Origin: a virus
Lineage: Duplodnaviria; Heunggongvirae; Uroviricota; Caudoviricetes
Length of the DNA stretch: 64,000 nt
IMG/VR virus record: IMGVR_UViG_2740892442_000004
Reading direction: 5' to 3' (one strand)
Every line of letters starts with the position of its first letter. Position 1 is the stretch's first letter. Under the pieces are notes generated by a model. That model saw only the letters and a program-made list of their open reading frames with translations, was not told the DNA's origin and ran no database searches. The position numbers and the translations under genes are program-made. Of this stretch, positions 6,954 through 63,814 are shown in pieces.

Positions 6954-8276
6954 ATGGAAAAACTGATCGCCCTAAAGCACAAGCTGGATGCCATAAAAAC
7001 GATGGGAACCAACGCCAAAAAAGAGGCGCTGGCCAACCTTGATGAATTTGAGCAGAGCATGGTCTCGCTAATGCTCAACCCATTCATTCGATTCGGTGTG
7101 AAGAAGTACAAAGTGGTCGAGCCACTCGATACTTCCGTACCCATCGACCAGAAGGTAGTCGAGCTGCTGGAGAAGCTGGCGGCGCGCGAACTGACCGGGA
7201 ACGCGGCCATTACTGCTGTTGAGTCTATCGTGGCGTCAATGTGCGCCGATGGGCAGGACGTGTTCCGTCGTTTCCTCTTAAAAGACCCGAAAGCGGGTGT
7301 TGGGATTAGCCTATGCAACAAGGTTTTTGAAAATCCCATTCCGAAATTCGAGGTGCAGCTGGCGTCACCGTATAAAGAAAAAGGCGACAAATACCCCTTC
7401 AAGCCAAACCCTAAAGCAAAATGGCCTATGATTGGCAGCCTTAAGCTCGATGGTTTGCGAGTAATTTGCGAGGTTATTGTTGACGAAGAAGAGGTTAACT
7501 TCCTTTCTCGTACTGGTAATCCAATCACGTCTCTCGATCACCTAAAGCCAGCCATGCTCGAATTAGGCAAACTTTCAGGCCACAAACACATCTTCTTCGA
7601 TGGTGAAGGAACTGCCGGTTCATTTAACCAGTCCGTATCTGCATTGCGCAAAAAGAACGTGCAGGCAATTGGCGCTATTTATCATGTTTTCGACTTCTTC
7701 CTACCGGAATGGCGGGCACAGGCTAAATCCAAAGAGTATGCAAAGACAGGTATGAAGCTGAAAGAGCGCCTGGCTATTCTCGTGGCGTTGTTCAAAAACG
7801 ATCGCAGTGAAGGCTACACACAAGACATTCACCTGCATCCGTTCTATATCATCCATAGCCACGAAGACTTCATCGAACGCTTCATGAAACGCCTGGACGA
7901 TAACGAAGAAGGGGAGATGGGCAAAGATCCGAACTCTGTTTACGAGTTTAAACGTACCCGCAGCTGGTGGAAGTTAAAAGACGAAGATTCAGAAGATGGT
8001 GAAATTATCGACTTTGAGCCGGGCGACCCGGACTCTGGTTTTGCCAACACGCTTGGAAAAATTGTTATTCGCCTTGAAAACGGTGTGATTGTTCGTGCGA
8101 GCGGCATTAAGCATAAATATCTGGACGAGATCTGGAACAACAAAGAGAAGTACCGTGGTCGTATTGTCGAGGTTCATTGTCACGAGAAAACGCCGGATGG
8201 CAGCTTACGCCACCCACGACTGAAATGGCCTCGTTGCTTACGCGATACCGAAGATCGAATCGGAGATAAAGAATGA
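6954..8276 (+). CDS. ATP-dependent DNA ligase
   Basis: Nucleotidyltransferase motif I SLKLDGLR, motif III FFDGE, motif V WWKLK, LRHPR motif VI-like. Confidence 0.7.
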   Translation: MEKLIALKHKLDAIKTMGTNAKKEALANLDEFEQSMVSLMLNPFIRFGVKKYKVVEPLDTSVPIDQKVVELLEKLAARELTGNAAITAVESIVASMCADGQDVFRRFLLKDPKAGVGISLCNKVFENPIPKFEVQLASPYKEKGDKYPFKPNPKAKWPMIGSLKLDGLRVICEVIVDEEEVNFLSRTGNPITSLDHLKPAMLELGKLSGHKHIFFDGEGTAGSFNQSVSALRKKNVQAIGAIYHVFDFFLPEWRAQAKSKEYAKTGMKLKERLAILVALFKNDRSEGYTQDIHLHPFYIIHSHEDFIERFMKRLDDNEEGEMGKDPNSVYEFKRTRSWWKLKDEDSEDGEIIDFEPGDPDSGFANTLGKIVIRLENGVIVRASGIKHKYLDEIWNNKEKYRGRIVEVHCHEKTPDGSLRHPRLKWPRCLRDTEDRIGDKE

Positions 8277-8924: not shown

Positions 8925-9702
8925 AAACATCACGATAAGTATTTACTTACTTATCTTTTATGTATAAGATGACTTTGTTTTCGTTGAGACGCGACTGTTT
9001 GAACTTAAATACAAGTGCAAACGAAGAAGTCTATCTGGCAGTAGCCTAATAAGCCAAACACCAGCGAGGTCAGTTTCCAGCCTCGTTACCGAAATGGGAC
9101 ACACTGAGCGAGTGTGATTGCAGAACGCAGGAGGGAACATGAGTGTTCCCTCCGATGAAGTAACAGAATGGGCGGTTGGTATATTTTCAACTCCATATGA
9201 CTCCCGGATTCTTAGCCACTGACCGCCCATCCTGTTACGTCATTTTGTTCAATTATGTCGTTTATACTGGGTTAAAAAGCGGCGACGTAGCCCGGCTGGT
9301 ATGGTTAGCCAGCACACAACGTTGAGGCCATTACATTTTTATCAATTCTAAGGTTCTATTCACAGAGATACCGGCGAGCGTTGATATGTAACATGTTGGG
9401 CAAACATTCAATCGGAGTAGTGGCCTCAACGTTGTGAAGACGGGATTGTTGTGTAGGTTTAACCACTGTTGCCATTGGTGCCTGTTTTCACAACAAATGA
9501 TTCCATACATCACATTGTATAAATTACAAAGTAGGTGCTGTCCTCAGAAACATCATCTACTTAAAGATTTTGCCTTCTACTATTGAGCGAAGTCGAAAGC
9601 GTCTGGCACTAACGAAAAGTGCAAGTAGCGGTGCGTTTCCTGGCAGAAACTAAACCGTCGCGATTGGCACTGTTGAGTAATAAATACTGGCAGTGCTGAA
9701 TT

Positions 9703-9777
9703 GATGGTGTAGCTCAGCGGTAGAGCAGTTGGCTGTTAACCAACTGGTCGGTGGTTCGAATCCACCCACCATCGCCA
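9703..9777 (+). tRNA. tRNA-Asn (anticodon GTT)
   Basis: Cloverleaf: acceptor gatggtg/caccatc, D-arm tagctcagcggtagagc, anticodon loop ctGTTaa, T-loop ggttcgaatcc, CCA end. Confidence 0.75.
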
Positions 9778-9782
9778 ATTTA

Positions 9783-9869
9783 GGGGAGTTAGTCCGTAGA
9801 GGTAGCGGTGTAGACTGTAAATCTACTGTCATGGCGACTCGGGTGGTTCGACTCCATCACTCCCCACCA
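9783..9869 (+). tRNA. tRNA-Tyr (anticodon GTA), long variable arm
   Basis: Acceptor ggggagt/actcccc, anticodon stem-loop gtagaCTGTAAAtctac, T-loop ggttcgactcc, CCA end. Confidence 0.65.
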
Positions 9870-9873
9870 AATT

Positions 9874-9949
9874 GCCGGTTTAGCTCAGTTGGTAGAGCAG
9901 TCGCTTTGTAAGCGAATGGCCAGCGGTTCAAGTCCGTTAACCGGCACCA
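9874..9949 (+). tRNA. tRNA-Thr (anticodon TGT)
   Basis: Acceptor gccggtt/aaccggc, D-arm tagctcagttggtagagc, anticodon loop ttTGTaa, T-loop ggttcaagtcc, CCA end. Confidence 0.65.
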
Positions 9950-10269
9950 ACACAACAGGTAAGAGCATTGGGCGAATCGGCGATACTGACCCACAAGGCC
10001 GTAAATCGATAGAGTCAGACCAGTGCTCTTACCGTTGTGAGGAAGTGCAGCTCTTTGAAGCAACCAGAAGATAAGCATCTGGCTTCACAACACAACGATA
10101 ATATCATTACGGTTAATCGTCGTTCATGTGCACAATGACTGGTCGAAAGGTAGTGATCTTACCGTTGTGATGAATGCACAGGCTGATGTGCCGCAACTAC
10201 AGTAGTGCGCGCTTTGCGGGGCTTGCTACAACCCTGTGTCGGAGTTCAGCACCGACCATCACAATAGCT

Positions 10270-10356
10270 GGAGAGTAGGGAGCATGGTGCTCAAGCGGTC
10301 TTGAAAACCGTCCCATTGTGCAAACGATGATGGTTCGATTCCATTACTCTCCGCCA
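10270..10356 (+). tRNA. tRNA-Ser (anticodon TGA), long variable arm
   Basis: Acceptor ggagagt/actctcc, anticodon stem-loop gcggtCTTGAAAaccgt as in enterobacterial tRNA-Ser(UGA), T-loop ggttcgattcc, CCA end. Confidence 0.7.
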
Positions 10357-10514
10357 GACACAGCGTTGAGCGGTTTGGCCTTTTAATCAACTCGATTAAG
10401 ACTCCGCTAACATAAACCAGACCGCTCAACGCTGTGATAGATAATTACGGCAGACGTTCTTAACCATAGCTTGCTAACATCCTAGCAACACTTTTTTTCA
10501 GCGCAAAATTCAAA

Positions 10515-10534
10515 GGGGCTTCGGCCCCTTTTTT
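10515..10534. terminator. Rho-independent terminator between convergent transcripts
   Basis: ggggcttcggcccc followed by tttttt. Confidence 0.65.
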
Positions 10535-10549
10535 GTTGAACAGTGCAAT

Positions 10550-12442: not shown

Positions 12443-13545
12443 ATGAAAAATAGCTTTGACAGAGCACGCGCTGCGGAGAACACCTCAAAAGAGGCGATAG
12501 AGTATCTCGAAAGAGCATCTCAAATGCAGGCCGTTATGATCTCGCAGGTTAGCAATGACATGAGATTCTCGGACGCATTCATGTTATTCACTCGCTTATC
12601 TCTGCTGATAACCAGACGTCGGCCAGAGATCGCTGTTCATTGTATTTTGATACATGTTTTGCCGCACATTGCCGATGTAAAAGTAAGTGACATTAATAGG
12701 TTCATGGTGAACCAACTGGTCAACCCACTAATACTGGATGGCAAAATTGTTATGGGCCGCCGCGTTTTCTCTCTGATGAAGCAGTTCCTTAGCTGGTGCG
12801 CCTTCCAGGGGATGATAGACGTGTCACCGTTAAACGATATGTCACTTAACAAAGTTGCCGGTGGCGCAAAGCCCACACCTCGCGAGCGGAAGCTGACCGA
12901 CGCAGAGGTATGGGTGTTCTGGAATATATGGGACTACTTCAATGTGTGTGCTGGTACAAAATGGGCGGCCAGGCTATGTCTTGTATCCGCAAGACGACCT
13001 GACGAAGTACTGCGGGCTAAAAAAAGTGAGTTCAATCTTAAGCGTGGGGTTTGGAATCAAGGCAAGAGGAACAAATCTGCCCGTGAGCATTCTCTGCCTT
13101 TAAGCTCATTAATGCGCACTTGTATTGAAGAGTTGTTCGAATATGGTAAAGACAGCCAGTGGCTCGTGCCTTCGAATAAAAAAATCGGGAAAGACCTTCC
13201 TATGTCTAAAGTGGCAATAGCCAGGCATTACGTCGTATTCTGGAACGACCAGAACTGATGGAGCTTGAGCCATTTACACCCCGAGATTTGCGCCGTACTG
13301 CGCGTAGTTACTTCCCAGCATTAGGCATAAGCCAGGAGGTATCACGTAAAATCATGAACCACAGTCTTGAGGGGATAGATCGGGTCTACGACCGGCACGA
13401 TTATATGGACGAGATGCGAGACGCCTTAGAAAGTTTCTCGACGTACATCGCATCAATCGTAGAGCAACCGGATTTAGACGAAATTGACCACAAATTTAAG
13501 GGAGATCGTCTATCAACAGAGCTTATTCGTGTAAATTTTTCATAG
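12443..13545 (+). CDS. tyrosine recombinase/integrase, apparently frameshifted near 13258 (possible pseudogene or indel error)
   Basis: Upstream ORF has LVSARRPDE box I-like Arg; downstream ORF has TPRDLRRTARSYF and MNHSLEGIDRVYDRHDY catalytic motifs; the two ORFs abut in different frames. Confidence 0.5.
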
Positions 13546-47733: not shown

Positions 47734-47755
47734 TTTGTTCTGGCGTCTGTAATTA

Positions 47756-47812
47756 GCCTGCTTCTGTATATATAAATAACTACATATTAATTATTAATAT
47801 ACGGAAGCAGGC
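47756..47812. repeat. Long imperfect hairpin, second copy of element at 782-837
   Basis: gcctgcttctgtatatat ... atatacggaagcaggc followed by tgttttg. Confidence 0.5.
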
Positions 47813-47918
47813 TGTTTTGTATCAGAGACTCCAGACCTGAACATCACTACAGAATCCACTAGAACCCCTTCCCAGACGCTTTAAAATCGATTTTATGAAT
47901 CACTTTAAGGAAACTAAC

Positions 47919-63699: not shown

Positions 63700-63736
63700 C
63701 ATATAGACACAATCCCTTCTGATTTACACAGTACCT

Positions 63737-63802
63737 AAAACAATTTGTTTTCTGCCTTTTGTTGATGGAGATAATAAACCACATAAGAAAACAACTTGTT
63801 TT
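63737..63802 (+). promoter_or_regulatory. Two tandem phage-type palindromes (AAAACAATTTGTTTT, AAAACAACTTGTTTT) plus ACCACATAAGAAAAC leader
   Basis: Same elements as upstream of genes in the phage-like region; located downstream of metG. Confidence 0.45.
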
Positions 63803-63814
63803 GGAGTGGTTGAA

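Follow-up and report, generated by a model that had tools for sequence, protein, structure and literature searches.

A family of stem-closed RNA cassettes and a tmRNA-type tag template in a tRNA operon of an SSU5-like phage-plasmid

Phage T4 makes two small structured RNAs, the stable RNAs C and D (species 1 and 2), which are co-transcribed and co-processed with the transfer RNAs (tRNAs) of the phage; to our knowledge they have no Rfam family and are not known as a repeated stem family. As for transfer-messenger RNA (tmRNA), surveys of phages have described complete genes and one case where only the tRNA-like domain is present, and none reduced to the tag part (PMC4131195, PMC9004378). Here we analyse a stretch of 64,000 nucleotides (nt) from the virus record IMGVR_UViG_2740892442_000004, hereafter the window, in which positions 8,940-10,540 of the + strand form a single untranslated RNA operon of about 1.6 kb, carried by an SSU5-like phage-plasmid. 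This operon contains four tRNAs (Asn, Tyr, Thr and Ser) and at least six long-stem hairpins, with stems of 14-27 base pairs (bp). Comparison with the homologous region of 11 annotated phages and more than 200 viral contigs shows that the hairpins, as far as can be read from their sequences, are one family of paralogous stem-closed RNA cassettes with interchangeable interiors. Besides, the tract upstream of tRNA-Asn opens with a tag template of tmRNA type, which was absent from the first-pass annotation of the window.

All the hairpins are read on the + strand. The three long inverted repeats quoted by the first-pass annotation were recovered within a few bases of the positions it gave, and are now joined by the elements E0, E1b and E3 and by two spacer modules, S1 and S2. 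E1 (9315-9436, z -6.2; the z-scores compare the RNA folding energy of each element with 200 shuffles) has a 20-bp stem, CACAACGTTGAGGCCATTAC/GTAGTGGCCTCAACGTTGTG, whose arms (9315-9334 and 9417-9436) enclose an interior of 82 nt. E2 (9951-10039, z -6.05) starts 2 nt after the CCA of tRNA-Thr and reads CACAAC-A-GGTAAGAGCATTGG/CCAGTGCTCTTACCGTTGTG: its core, 9958-9971 paired with 10020-10033, is extended by CACAAC/GTTGTG to the whole of 9951-10039, with one bulged A. E4 (10359-10436, z -9.9), 3 nt after the CCA of tRNA-Ser, has again a 20-bp stem, CACAGCGTTGAGCGGTTTGG/CCAGACCGCTCAACGCTGTG, with arms at 10359-10378 and 10417-10436. E0 (9154-9244, z -5.8), whose 27-bp stem reads GATGAAGTAACAG...CTGTTACGTCATT, is a divergent member of the family; its 19 distinct orthologs vary in the interior and retain CCCGG. 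E1b (9431-9494, z -2.85) is paired as GTTGTGAAGACGGG/CCTGTTTTCACAAC and is altered in its orthologs to GTTGTGGTCACGG/CCGTGGCCACAAC with the pairing retained; E3 (10091-10169, z -2.3) is paired as CACAACGATAATATCATTAC/GTAGTGATCTTACCGTTGTG, and its ortholog in Escherichia phage CMS-2020a forms a better stem, GATAAGATC. S1 (10034-10091), GTTGTGA...CCAGAAGATAAGCATCTGG...TCACAAC, has homologs in other phages. S2 (10170-10262), ATGAATGCACAGGCTGATGTGC...GTCGGAGTTCAGCACCGAC CATCACAA, is also present in P1, L005 and L009 (Ro157c2YLVW), and its terminal hairpin covaries with the S3 version, GCCGG...CCGGC.

The closing sequences tie these elements together. At the base of the stem the conserved sequence is 5'-(C)ACAAC and GUUGUG-3', so that the shared CACAAC...GTTGTGA closing announced by the first-pass annotation holds for E1, E2 and E3, which all end with GTTGTGA, while E4 carries the variant CACAGC...GCTGTGA (CACAGC/GCUGUG at the stem base). 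Over 8930-10440 both hexamers are enriched more than ten-fold: CACAAC occurs five times where the remainder of the window predicts 0.36 (P = 4e-5), and GTTGTG four times where it predicts 0.29 (P = 2e-4). Successive modules alternate CACAAC...GUUGUG...CACAAC, and neighbours share, or compete for, the same GUUGUG: the copy at 9431-9436 is common to E1 and E1b and that at 10034-10039 to E2 and S1, while overlapping copies of CACAAC at 10086-10096, including ACAACACAAC at 10087-10096, serve S1 and E3. Above the base two main types of stem are found, GUUGAG.../...CUCAAC and (A)GGUAAGRG.../...CYCUUACC. A U.G wobble stands four pairs below the interior in E1 to E4 (9331/9420, 9968/10023, 10107/10153 and 10375/10420), within CATT[AG][CG]/[GC][TC]AGTG, and above it the stem sequence covaries freely. 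Hairpins of this kind are rare: on the + strand of the 64 kb only six combine a stem of 16 bp or more with an interior of 20 nt or longer, and three of the six lie in these 1.3 kb. Two further long-stem hairpins, at 47754-47814 and 63735-63804 (stems of 18-19 bp, interiors of 25-32 nt), are unrelated to the family in sequence.

The stems are selected RNA structures, kept as duplexes on the strand of the tRNAs. The first-pass annotation had named an alignment searched for compensatory changes as a check, and the orthologs of E1 and E4 do show such changes, with a single broken cell in 39 pairs. For E1, 3 of the 19 pairs are compensated (e.g. GGCC/GGCC becoming GACC/GGTC) and one cell is broken; the one-sided changes turn A-U into G.U or C-G into U.G, which is valid on the + strand only. 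For E4, 2 of the 20 pairs are compensated (U-A to C-G, and G-C to A-U), none is broken, and the U.G pair is present in 11 of the 12 sequences. A wider alignment of 41 distinct stems of the family goes in the same direction: 96.6% of the cells are paired, whereas sliding the partner by 1-3 columns leaves 37-56%, double-sided changes occur at 12 of the 18 pairs, and G.U wobbles outnumber A.C mismatches on the + strand (46 against 14), which points to this strand because A.C would be the wobble on the other one; the pairing percentage and the strand bias are however partly due to construction, and both inflated, since the script that assembled the family set demanded pairing and accepted G.U on the + strand. 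The ortholog alignments of E1 and E4 are free of this selection bias.

The interiors, on the other hand, are exchanged. The E2 stem that follows tRNA-Thr encloses 48 nt in the window and four other interiors in P1, Ro157c2YLVW, L012 and L005: in P1 and D6 the interior resembles a D-arm and a T-arm, GCGACGTCGGAGATCGC...AGGGTTCGAATCCCT, in Ro157c2YLVW it is short, and in L012 and L005 it holds a T-arm. Conversely, the E2 interior of the window recurs in Klebsiella phage-plasmids within a different stem, upstream of tRNA-Asn, where its own helix is compensated (CTGAC/GTCAG to CAGCC/GGCTG). In the interior of E4 (10379-10416), AAGACTCCGC is kept in 11 of 12 aligned orthologs and is AAAACTCAGT in the remaining one, whereas the rest is replaced; AAGACTCCGC could be a single-stranded recognition or seed sequence. 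The tRNA-like T-arms found in some relatives (AGGGTTCGAATCCCT in P1, CAGAGTTCGACTCTCTG in L005, GCGGTTCGACTCCGC in L132) lend some substance to the former idea of degenerate tRNA-like elements, but the copies of the window do not bear it out: a T-arm scan of the whole window returned none beyond the four tRNAs, its hairpins have no tRNA-like features, and the cloverleaf search, by ARAGORN and by Rfam at E up to 10, likewise retrieved no tRNA but these four. Even the E2 hairpin of P1 gave no Rfam tRNA match at E up to 5. In the relatives with T-arm interiors, a U.G falls at the would-be acceptor position 3:70. With permissive thresholds, over the window and six related loci, no Rfam family was found for the hairpin cassettes, the only matches being tRNAs and, below threshold, tmRNA and STnc100.

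The position of the cassettes is also constrained. Elements follow the CCA that closes a tRNA block at a distance of 0-2 nt: an element lies within 1-2 nt of tRNA-Thr in 63 of 70 distinct loci, and directly after tRNA-Ser in 29 of 44 and after tRNA-Asn in 25 of 87. In the same set of loci, none was ever found after a tRNA that precedes another tRNA. The tRNA sets themselves vary among relatives (Asn; Asn-Thr; Asn-Tyr-Thr; Arg-Tyr-Thr; with or without Ser). The interpretation of the first-pass annotation is in part borne out: the stems are selected RNA structures, and their abutment on tRNA 3' ends is compatible with RNA processing.

We favour, tentatively, the reading that the hairpins are processing and insulating stalks, expected to be substrates of RNase III; they constitute a new family of structured RNA cassettes, for which such a general role is plausible. 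The continuous duplex of about two helical turns that characterizes RNase III stalks is present in E0, E1 and E4 (stems of 20-27 bp), and the stems of E2 and E3 reach 20-21 bp with one bulge or with mismatches. Near-perfect duplexes of 20-27 bp would be cut in E. coli by the host RNase III, and the cassettes would behave like the stalks known from the processing of rRNA operons and phage early transcripts. The cassettes would punctuate one transcript, which also bears the tmRNA-derived tag module and the four tRNAs, and the cuts would split this precursor into tRNAs and small hairpin RNAs. The cassettes would also fold every spacer into closed helices, hiding the C/A-rich RNA and leaving no loading site for Rho on an untranslated transcript; the cuts would make the tRNA 3' ends free for exonuclease trimming, and the interiors would persist as hairpin RNAs, small and stable. 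Thanks to the common closing sequence, modules could be swapped by recombination while the function is kept. Count for the stalks the fold scores of the stems, their rarity, the enriched closing hexamers, the pairing and the G.U excess of the family alignment, the compensated pairs, the abutment on tRNAs, the exchanged interiors and the single intrinsic terminator, predicted at the end of the operon (10512-10531, + strand).

Another argument comes from phage epsilon34, where a homolog of S1 lies at 1490-1550 of the sequence L135, between the nutL boxB and the start codon of N, i.e. in the PL-N leader. Lambda has an RNase III site at the corresponding place of its N leader, and the coincidence counts for the stalks. 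The epsilon34 homolog is closed by GATGCGATG/CATCGCATC and not by GTTGTGA/TCACAAC.

Several points weigh against processing and insulating stalks. Cleavage by RNase III is a prediction from duplex length, and in E. coli the maturation of tRNA 3' ends proceeds without RNase III, so that stalks are unnecessary for that step. Pure processing leaves unexplained the conservation of the CACAAC/GUUGUG sequence across phage families, as well as interior motifs such as AAGACUCCGC in E4 and the T-arms of the relatives. In phage Cyrano, tRNA-Thr and tRNA-Ser stand 8 nt apart without a cassette between them. The inflated figures of the family alignment have to be remembered here too.

The tag module begins with a leader, GTTTTCG...GCGACTGTTTGAAC, followed by an A-rich linker up to the resume codon (8977-9016, + strand); it is near-invariant in alignment A1 and has its counterpart, GTTTTCG...GCGACTTTGCGG, in the P1, lambdoid and 9g-like copies. 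Then comes the frame GCA AAC GAA GAA GTC TAT CTG GCA GTA GCC TAA TAA (9017-9052, + strand), i.e. ANEEVYLAVA and two stops, without a start codon. What pointed to it were weak but recurrent Rfam matches to tmRNA_permuted and beta_tmRNA, below the gathering thresholds (21.8 against 47 bits, and 17.3 against 84). Phage contigs contain no fewer than 20 in-frame variants, every one with ten codons and a stop; examples are ANDDLMMVAA in P1, ANEDTYLAVA in SSU5, ANDNQYLAVA in Klebsiella, ANEEMYLAVA and ANDEQFLAVA in lambdoid phages, ANEERFLMAA in PJ16. They share the tmRNA-like pattern A-N-[DE]-[DEN]-x-[YFM..]-hydrophobic-A; the last codon is Ala (GCC, GCT or GCG) in all but one variant, known from a single locus and ending with Pro, and synonymous changes are seen at codon 6 (TAT/TAC) and codon 8 (GCA/GCC). 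This pattern of variation is what would be expected of a translated tag template. Further copies of the tag lie at 1101-1133 of P1 (L002), 3511-3543 of L132 and 1211-1243 of L136. After the stop codons, in the place of helix 5 of tmRNA, a hairpin GCGAGG/CCTCGT (9064-9086, + strand) was returned by RNAalifold from 45 representatives, with three covarying pairs (CG in 25 and UA in 16; GC in 23 and AU in 16; GC in 8 and AU in 31).

A normal start codon for this frame was sought and rejected: the upstream frame is broken by indels of 1-2 nt between relatives, the P1-type copies have an in-frame TAG 8 codons upstream, and the in-frame TTG of the window is not conserved. The conserved structured part of the leader ends 11-12 nt before GCA, and RNAalifold gives no consensus pairing there, at the position of the pseudoknot PK1. 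A tRNA-like domain beside the tag, that is an acceptor stem with G3.U70, a T-arm and a 3' CCA, was not found in any cassette, and ARAGORN detected no tmRNA in the window, in 100 distinct cassette regions or in a further set of cassettes. The conserved GTTTTCG has no consistent acceptor-strand partner; among lambdoid phages, CGAAAT of the long-stem element just before it is its pairing partner. In about 60 distinct cassettes the stretch from 0.7 kb before the tag to 1.5 kb after it is devoid of tRNAs, therefore the neighbouring tRNAs cannot be the general partner of the tag. The similarity to ssrA of E. coli is limited to 47 nt around the tag, and the tag module is therefore no recent fragment of the host gene. 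The tag pattern without ARAGORN tmRNA was also met in contigs of Rosenbergiella, Pseudocitrobacter, Rouxiella, Erwinia and Vibrio hangzhouensis (L250, L290, L291, L294 and L261), which are probably more tag modules lacking the tRNA-like domain, in prophages of other Enterobacterales and of a Vibrio. The literature that was searched in full text contained no report of a tag-only tmRNA, of these tag peptides or of a tmRNA-like RNA in P1 or lambdoid phages, and nothing relevant on P1 transcriptomics. A tag template without tRNA-like partner, shared by SSU5-like, P1-like, lambdoid and 9g-like phages, is thus apparently unreported.

Where might tag and hairpins come from? When genomes were scanned with the resume-region pattern, tmRNAs of Betaproteobacteria were recovered, two-piece forms among them, and these are the closest to the tag among the sequences examined. 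In Gallionellaceae and relatives the permuted tmRNA has an acceptor piece, GCAUUGUUGUGAGC...T-arm...CCA, and a coding piece, GGGGAUGACCUGGUUUCGACAG...AUGUAAAU-GCA AAC GAU GAA AAC UUC GCU AUG GCG GCC UAA...GCCUUGUCAUACAACACAACUAG; over the resume region P1 is identical to it at 17 of 17 nt. RNAcofold predicts exactly two intermolecular helices between the pieces, the acceptor stem and GUUGUG:CACAAC. Because the latter would be the joint between the pieces of a two-piece tmRNA, the hairpins may descend from tmRNA as well. Two short sequences of the window, ACAACACAAC within the overlap of S1 and E3 and ATTGTTGTG within E1b (9445-9453; also written AUUGUUGUG), are exact matches to the Gallionellaceae tmRNA. 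In lambdoid cassettes a long-stem element is placed directly 5' of the tag module, its 3' strand continuing into GUUUUCG, and in L152 this element has the D-arm/T-arm interior of P1. Together these resemblances suggest that a permuted tmRNA is the ancestor of the entire set of cassettes with its closing helix, a hypothesis for which the evidence beyond the tag is statistically weak. We also observed that the variable arm of tRNA-Ser (10318-10330) is GTGCAAACGATGA, and that it shares 12 bases, TGCAAACGATGA, both with the beginning of the P1 tag frame, ATGCAAACGATGA, and with the Gallionellaceae resume region.

If so, the dismantled tmRNA might still work in trans-translation, the hairpins, or alternative pairings which they make with neighbouring modules, joining the tag template to a tRNA-like piece so that a phage tag is added by stalled ribosomes. 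The intact ten-codon variants, with their tmRNA-like chemistry, their stop and no start codon, would fit such a role, as would the covarying helix-5-like hairpin, the resume region of P1, the predicted GUUGUG:CACAAC helix with the two exact matches, the D-arm and T-arm interiors which relatives hold within the same stems, and the lambdoid element fused 5' of the tag. However the T-arms of the window belong solely to the four tRNAs, no cassette combines an acceptor stem, G3.U70 and a free CCA end, and the elements with a T-arm have U.G and not G.U at the would-be 3:70; ARAGORN found no tmRNA, Rfam scores are far below threshold, and the matches beyond the tag are 9-10-mers, with BLAST E above 1, which are not colinear. 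We consider a working tmRNA unlikely. A broader form of the idea is that enterobacterial phages (P1, SSU5-like, lambdoid and 9g-like) carry a dismantled, modular tmRNA that re-programmes or hijacks ribosome rescue during lytic growth. Its parts would be the tag template without tRNA-like domain, the cassettes closed by CACAAC/GUUGUG, once the helix between the pieces of a permuted tmRNA, and, in some phages, the tRNA-like hairpins; an alternative tag might for instance be supplied in trans or through a non-canonical tRNA-like partner, and the hairpins of the window would be functional connectors or scaffolds and not mere spacers. To this too we can give only a small part of our belief.

That the tag template without tRNA-like domain and the tRNA-like hairpins of relatives act as decoys against the trans-translation of the host or its tRNA-directed defence, titrating SmpB, S1, RNase R, tRNA-modifying enzymes or anticodon nucleases without serving for tagging, looks improbable. 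A precedent exists in the tmRNA of mycobacteriophage DS6A, made of the tRNA-like domain only, a similar molecule having been reported as a strong inhibitor of tmRNA, perhaps by titrating SmpB (PMC4131195); moreover cassettes lie in heavily transcribed lytic leaders (the ban operon of P1, downstream of Q in lambdoid phages) and several relatives have T-arm interiors. But a decoy has no need of an intact ten-codon frame, which is nevertheless intact in every variant, and the hairpins of the window lack tRNA-like features.

Could the modules act at the DNA level, as mobile or recombination units (MITE-like, integron-cassette-like, or hot spots) which shuffle tRNA genes, the RNA structure being a by-product? 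The strong mosaicism, the tRNA sets differing between relatives, one stem with various interiors and one interior in various stems, and the presence of modules in unrelated phage families would all suit this explanation, which we nonetheless find highly doubtful: G.U pairs and one-sided changes are tolerated on the + strand only, indicating selection on RNA, and neither copies in the window outside the operon nor target-site duplications were seen. As to the classes taken separately, integron attC sites were rejected since ACACAAC and GTTGTGA break the consensus RYYYAAC...GTTRRRY (the former misfits the inverse core) and since the stems are almost perfect, without the extrahelical bases of attC. 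Miniature inverted-repeat transposable elements (MITEs), REP and ERIC were rejected too: CGTTGTGA is found only three times on the + strand, always in the operon, plus one unrelated site, and the long-stem hairpins elsewhere in the window are unrelated. The nearest recombinase-like open reading frame (ORF), 12443-13258, is below the Pfam cut-offs.

CACAACA is also the consensus of the targets of R1 of GcvB, a small RNA (sRNA) of the host, and AgvB is a prophage-encoded anti-GcvB RNA (PMC4104026). That the cassettes would likewise mimic or sponge GcvB, retuning amino-acid transport, is very improbable: CACAACA does occur in the window at 9489, 9951 and 10086, and the 3' arm of E3, CTTACCGTTGTGATG (10155-10169), matches CTTACGGTTGTGATG of E. 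coli gcvB (L134, 205-219) at 14 of 15 positions, but this match over 15 positions is post hoc, each CACAAC has its pairing partner in a GUUGUG of the same transcript and is hence unexposed, a duplex-energy scan of GcvB R1 over the 64 kb put only 1 of the 25 best sites in the region, with no enrichment, and AgvB, of 51-60 nt with its own promoter and terminator, is not homologous to the elements.

Two other classes were examined and set aside. A nut site (a boxA resembling GCUCUUUA, plus boxB) was considered for GCTCTTT, present in S1 of the window and in the 3' arm of E2, and dropped as this sequence is not kept in homologs: at the boxA-like place they have GATCTTAG, GCTCGTTG, GTTCTCAG or GTCCATCG. 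The annotated nutR boxB of epsilon34 is a hairpin different from that of S1, a similar sequence in its PL leader resembles a nutL copy, and the S1 hairpin occurs once only in the 17-kb stretch of epsilon34 that was searched. Y RNA and YrlA (RF02553, RF00019) gave no match in the window at E up to 10; the sole YrlA match in P1, at 25.6 bits against 69, spans two tRNAs.

The family is widely distributed. Pieces of the tRNA-free part (9950-10265) were found in 68 phage records, among them P1-like phages, SSU5-like phage-plasmids of Escherichia, Salmonella and Klebsiella, 150-kb myoviruses, the siphoviruses PJ16, Sasha, Solent and Bas82, the P22-like epsilon34, g341c and SPN9CC, and the lambdoid HK629 and JEP4; the family is present in 9g-like phages as well. 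Homologs of S1 were recognized in P1, D6, Klebsiella phage-plasmids, PJ16 and epsilon34. The elements are always at untranslated, highly transcribed positions: in the leader of the ban operon in P1, in the gap separating the antiterminator Q from the holin of a lambdoid prophage, ahead of N in epsilon34 as described above, and among the structural genes of PJ16.

In P1 (NC_005856, L002), the region 1629-2198 annotated as plp (a putative lipoprotein) and upl is opposite two conserved long-stem elements and S1/S2; plp and upl may not be real genes, and CYRAN_40 of Cyrano and pJN226_0098 of pJN2-26 may deserve the same doubt. The tag region is blank in the RefSeq record of P1, and none of the records checked has an RNA annotation of the unit. 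Directly upstream of the P1 tag module, an annotated 'dicF-like region' (948-1049) contains a terminator-like hairpin. Just downstream of the last hairpin cassette, a match to Rfam STnc100, a gammaproteobacterial sRNA, reaches 33-40 bits for a threshold of 47 in P1 (L002, 2237-2356), D6 (L010, 2320-2440) and Ro157c2YLVW (L009, 2459-2578); the window has no counterpart. The ban leader of P1 thus presents in tandem the dicF-like region, the tag module, hairpin cassettes, tRNAs and this sub-threshold STnc100-like match.

As regards the locus itself, the region matches SSU5-like phage-plasmids of E. coli, among them CMS-2020a (93-96% identity) and Cyrano (97%). A 351-nt sample of it matches plasmid NZ_CP027369.1 of E. 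coli 2014C-3307 at 100% identity, and 258 of 5,426 complete E. coli genomes contain close copies of this sample, nearly all on plasmids; on the plasmids with this match, the RefSeq/PGAP annotation has no feature at that place. The tRNAs, all on the + strand and detected by ARAGORN, are tRNA-Asn (9703-9777; Rfam tRNA, 75.5 bits), tRNA-Tyr (9783-9869; 41.6 bits), which the first-pass annotation had missed, tRNA-Thr (9874-9949; 69 bits) and tRNA-Ser (UGA) (10270-10356; tRNA-Sec-like, 44.8 bits for a threshold of 47). Upstream of the tag module we infer a promoter from TTTACT-17 nt-TAAGAT (8942-8970, + strand), read from the sequence and kept in SSU5-like relatives (A1), its score being below the threshold of a consensus scan. 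Within 9100-9153 (+ strand), inverted repeats and alignment A1 reveal two small hairpins, CACACT/AGTGTG (9100-9116) and GGAGGGAACA/TGTTCCCTCC (9130-9153). The second, perfect over 10 bp, is the local hairpin formerly placed at 9140-9165; SSU5 and the Klebsiella relatives have other sequences there, with the pairing retained. Between E0 and E1, a block near-invariant among SSU5-like relatives (9255-9314, + strand; A1) combines TGTCG...GGGTTA...CGACG...TAGCCC with a hairpin GCTGG...CCAGC; with the pairing read by eye, TGTCG with CGACG and GGGTTA with TAGCCC, it could form an H-type pseudoknot. The earlier impression that these tracts hold no credible ORF is borne out by the indels of the relatives, which are not multiples of three (gaps of 10 and 17 nt for example, in A1), and no reading frame of the hairpin tract is conserved among relatives. 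On the upstream side, three small ORFs that match no Pfam family accompany an ATP-dependent DNA ligase (6954-8276); downstream, on the opposite strand, is an ORF of 420 amino acids, also without Pfam match. The Pfam scan of neighbouring ORFs detected neither SmpB nor an RNA-binding domain.

P1 and the lambda-like phages are among the best-studied genetic systems, and yet the unit goes without RNA annotation in the records checked. If the hairpins are indeed stalks, the cassettes would be a reusable 'adaptor' for assembling and exchanging phage genes for tRNAs and small RNAs. The tag template without tRNA-like domain is harder to explain than the hairpins: a conserved ten-codon frame without its own start would imply an unknown entry into trans-translation or a new kind of interference with it. 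P1 offers an experimental system where both ideas are directly testable.

How then do the cassettes compare with known systems? To the RNAs C and D of T4 they are alike by description only. Like the RNase III stalks of rRNA operons, of the T7 early region and of the lambda N leader, they are duplexes of at least 20 bp which flank structured RNA, in an untranslated or leader transcript that can carry tRNAs, the S1 homolog of epsilon34 being itself in the PL-N leader. Unlike them, they enclose variable interiors of 38-82 nt and not a fixed product, share a conserved pair of closing hexamers and abut tRNA 3' ends, and their cleavage is predicted. With tmRNA (ssrA; permuted forms RF01850 and RF04321, standard form RF00023), above all the permuted two-piece form of Betaproteobacteria, the module shares a ten-codon frame that lacks a start codon, starts with GCA AAC GA- and ends with hydrophobic residues, Ala and a stop, as well as an A-rich linker before the resume codon, a covarying hairpin after the stop, and GUUGUG with CACAAC, predicted to pair between the pieces in Gallionellaceae; the E. 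coli tag GCA AAC GAC GAA AAC TAC GCT TTA GCA GCT TAA TAA, ANDENYALAA, can be set against ANEEVYLAVA of the window. The cassettes differ from tmRNA in having neither tRNA-like domain, G3.U70 nor CCA end, and from its permuted forms in that CACAAC/GUUGUG makes local hairpins and not a joint between RNAs. Mycobacteriophage DS6A also has a partial tmRNA, of which it is the tRNA-like half that is present (PMC4131195), whereas here the messenger-like half is kept. AgvB and AsxR, the anti-sRNAs of lambdoid prophages, are likewise phage non-coding RNAs, encoded downstream of PR', and AgvB contains CACAACA (PMC4104026), but they are primary transcripts of 51-60 nt with an exposed seed, without long stems and without homology in sequence or structure. 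Finally the cassettes resemble REP/BIME, ERIC, MITEs and attC as imperfect intergenic palindromes of 80-130 bp with conserved ends, and differ from all of these in being confined to one operon and one strand, with G.U asymmetry and no dispersed copies in the window.

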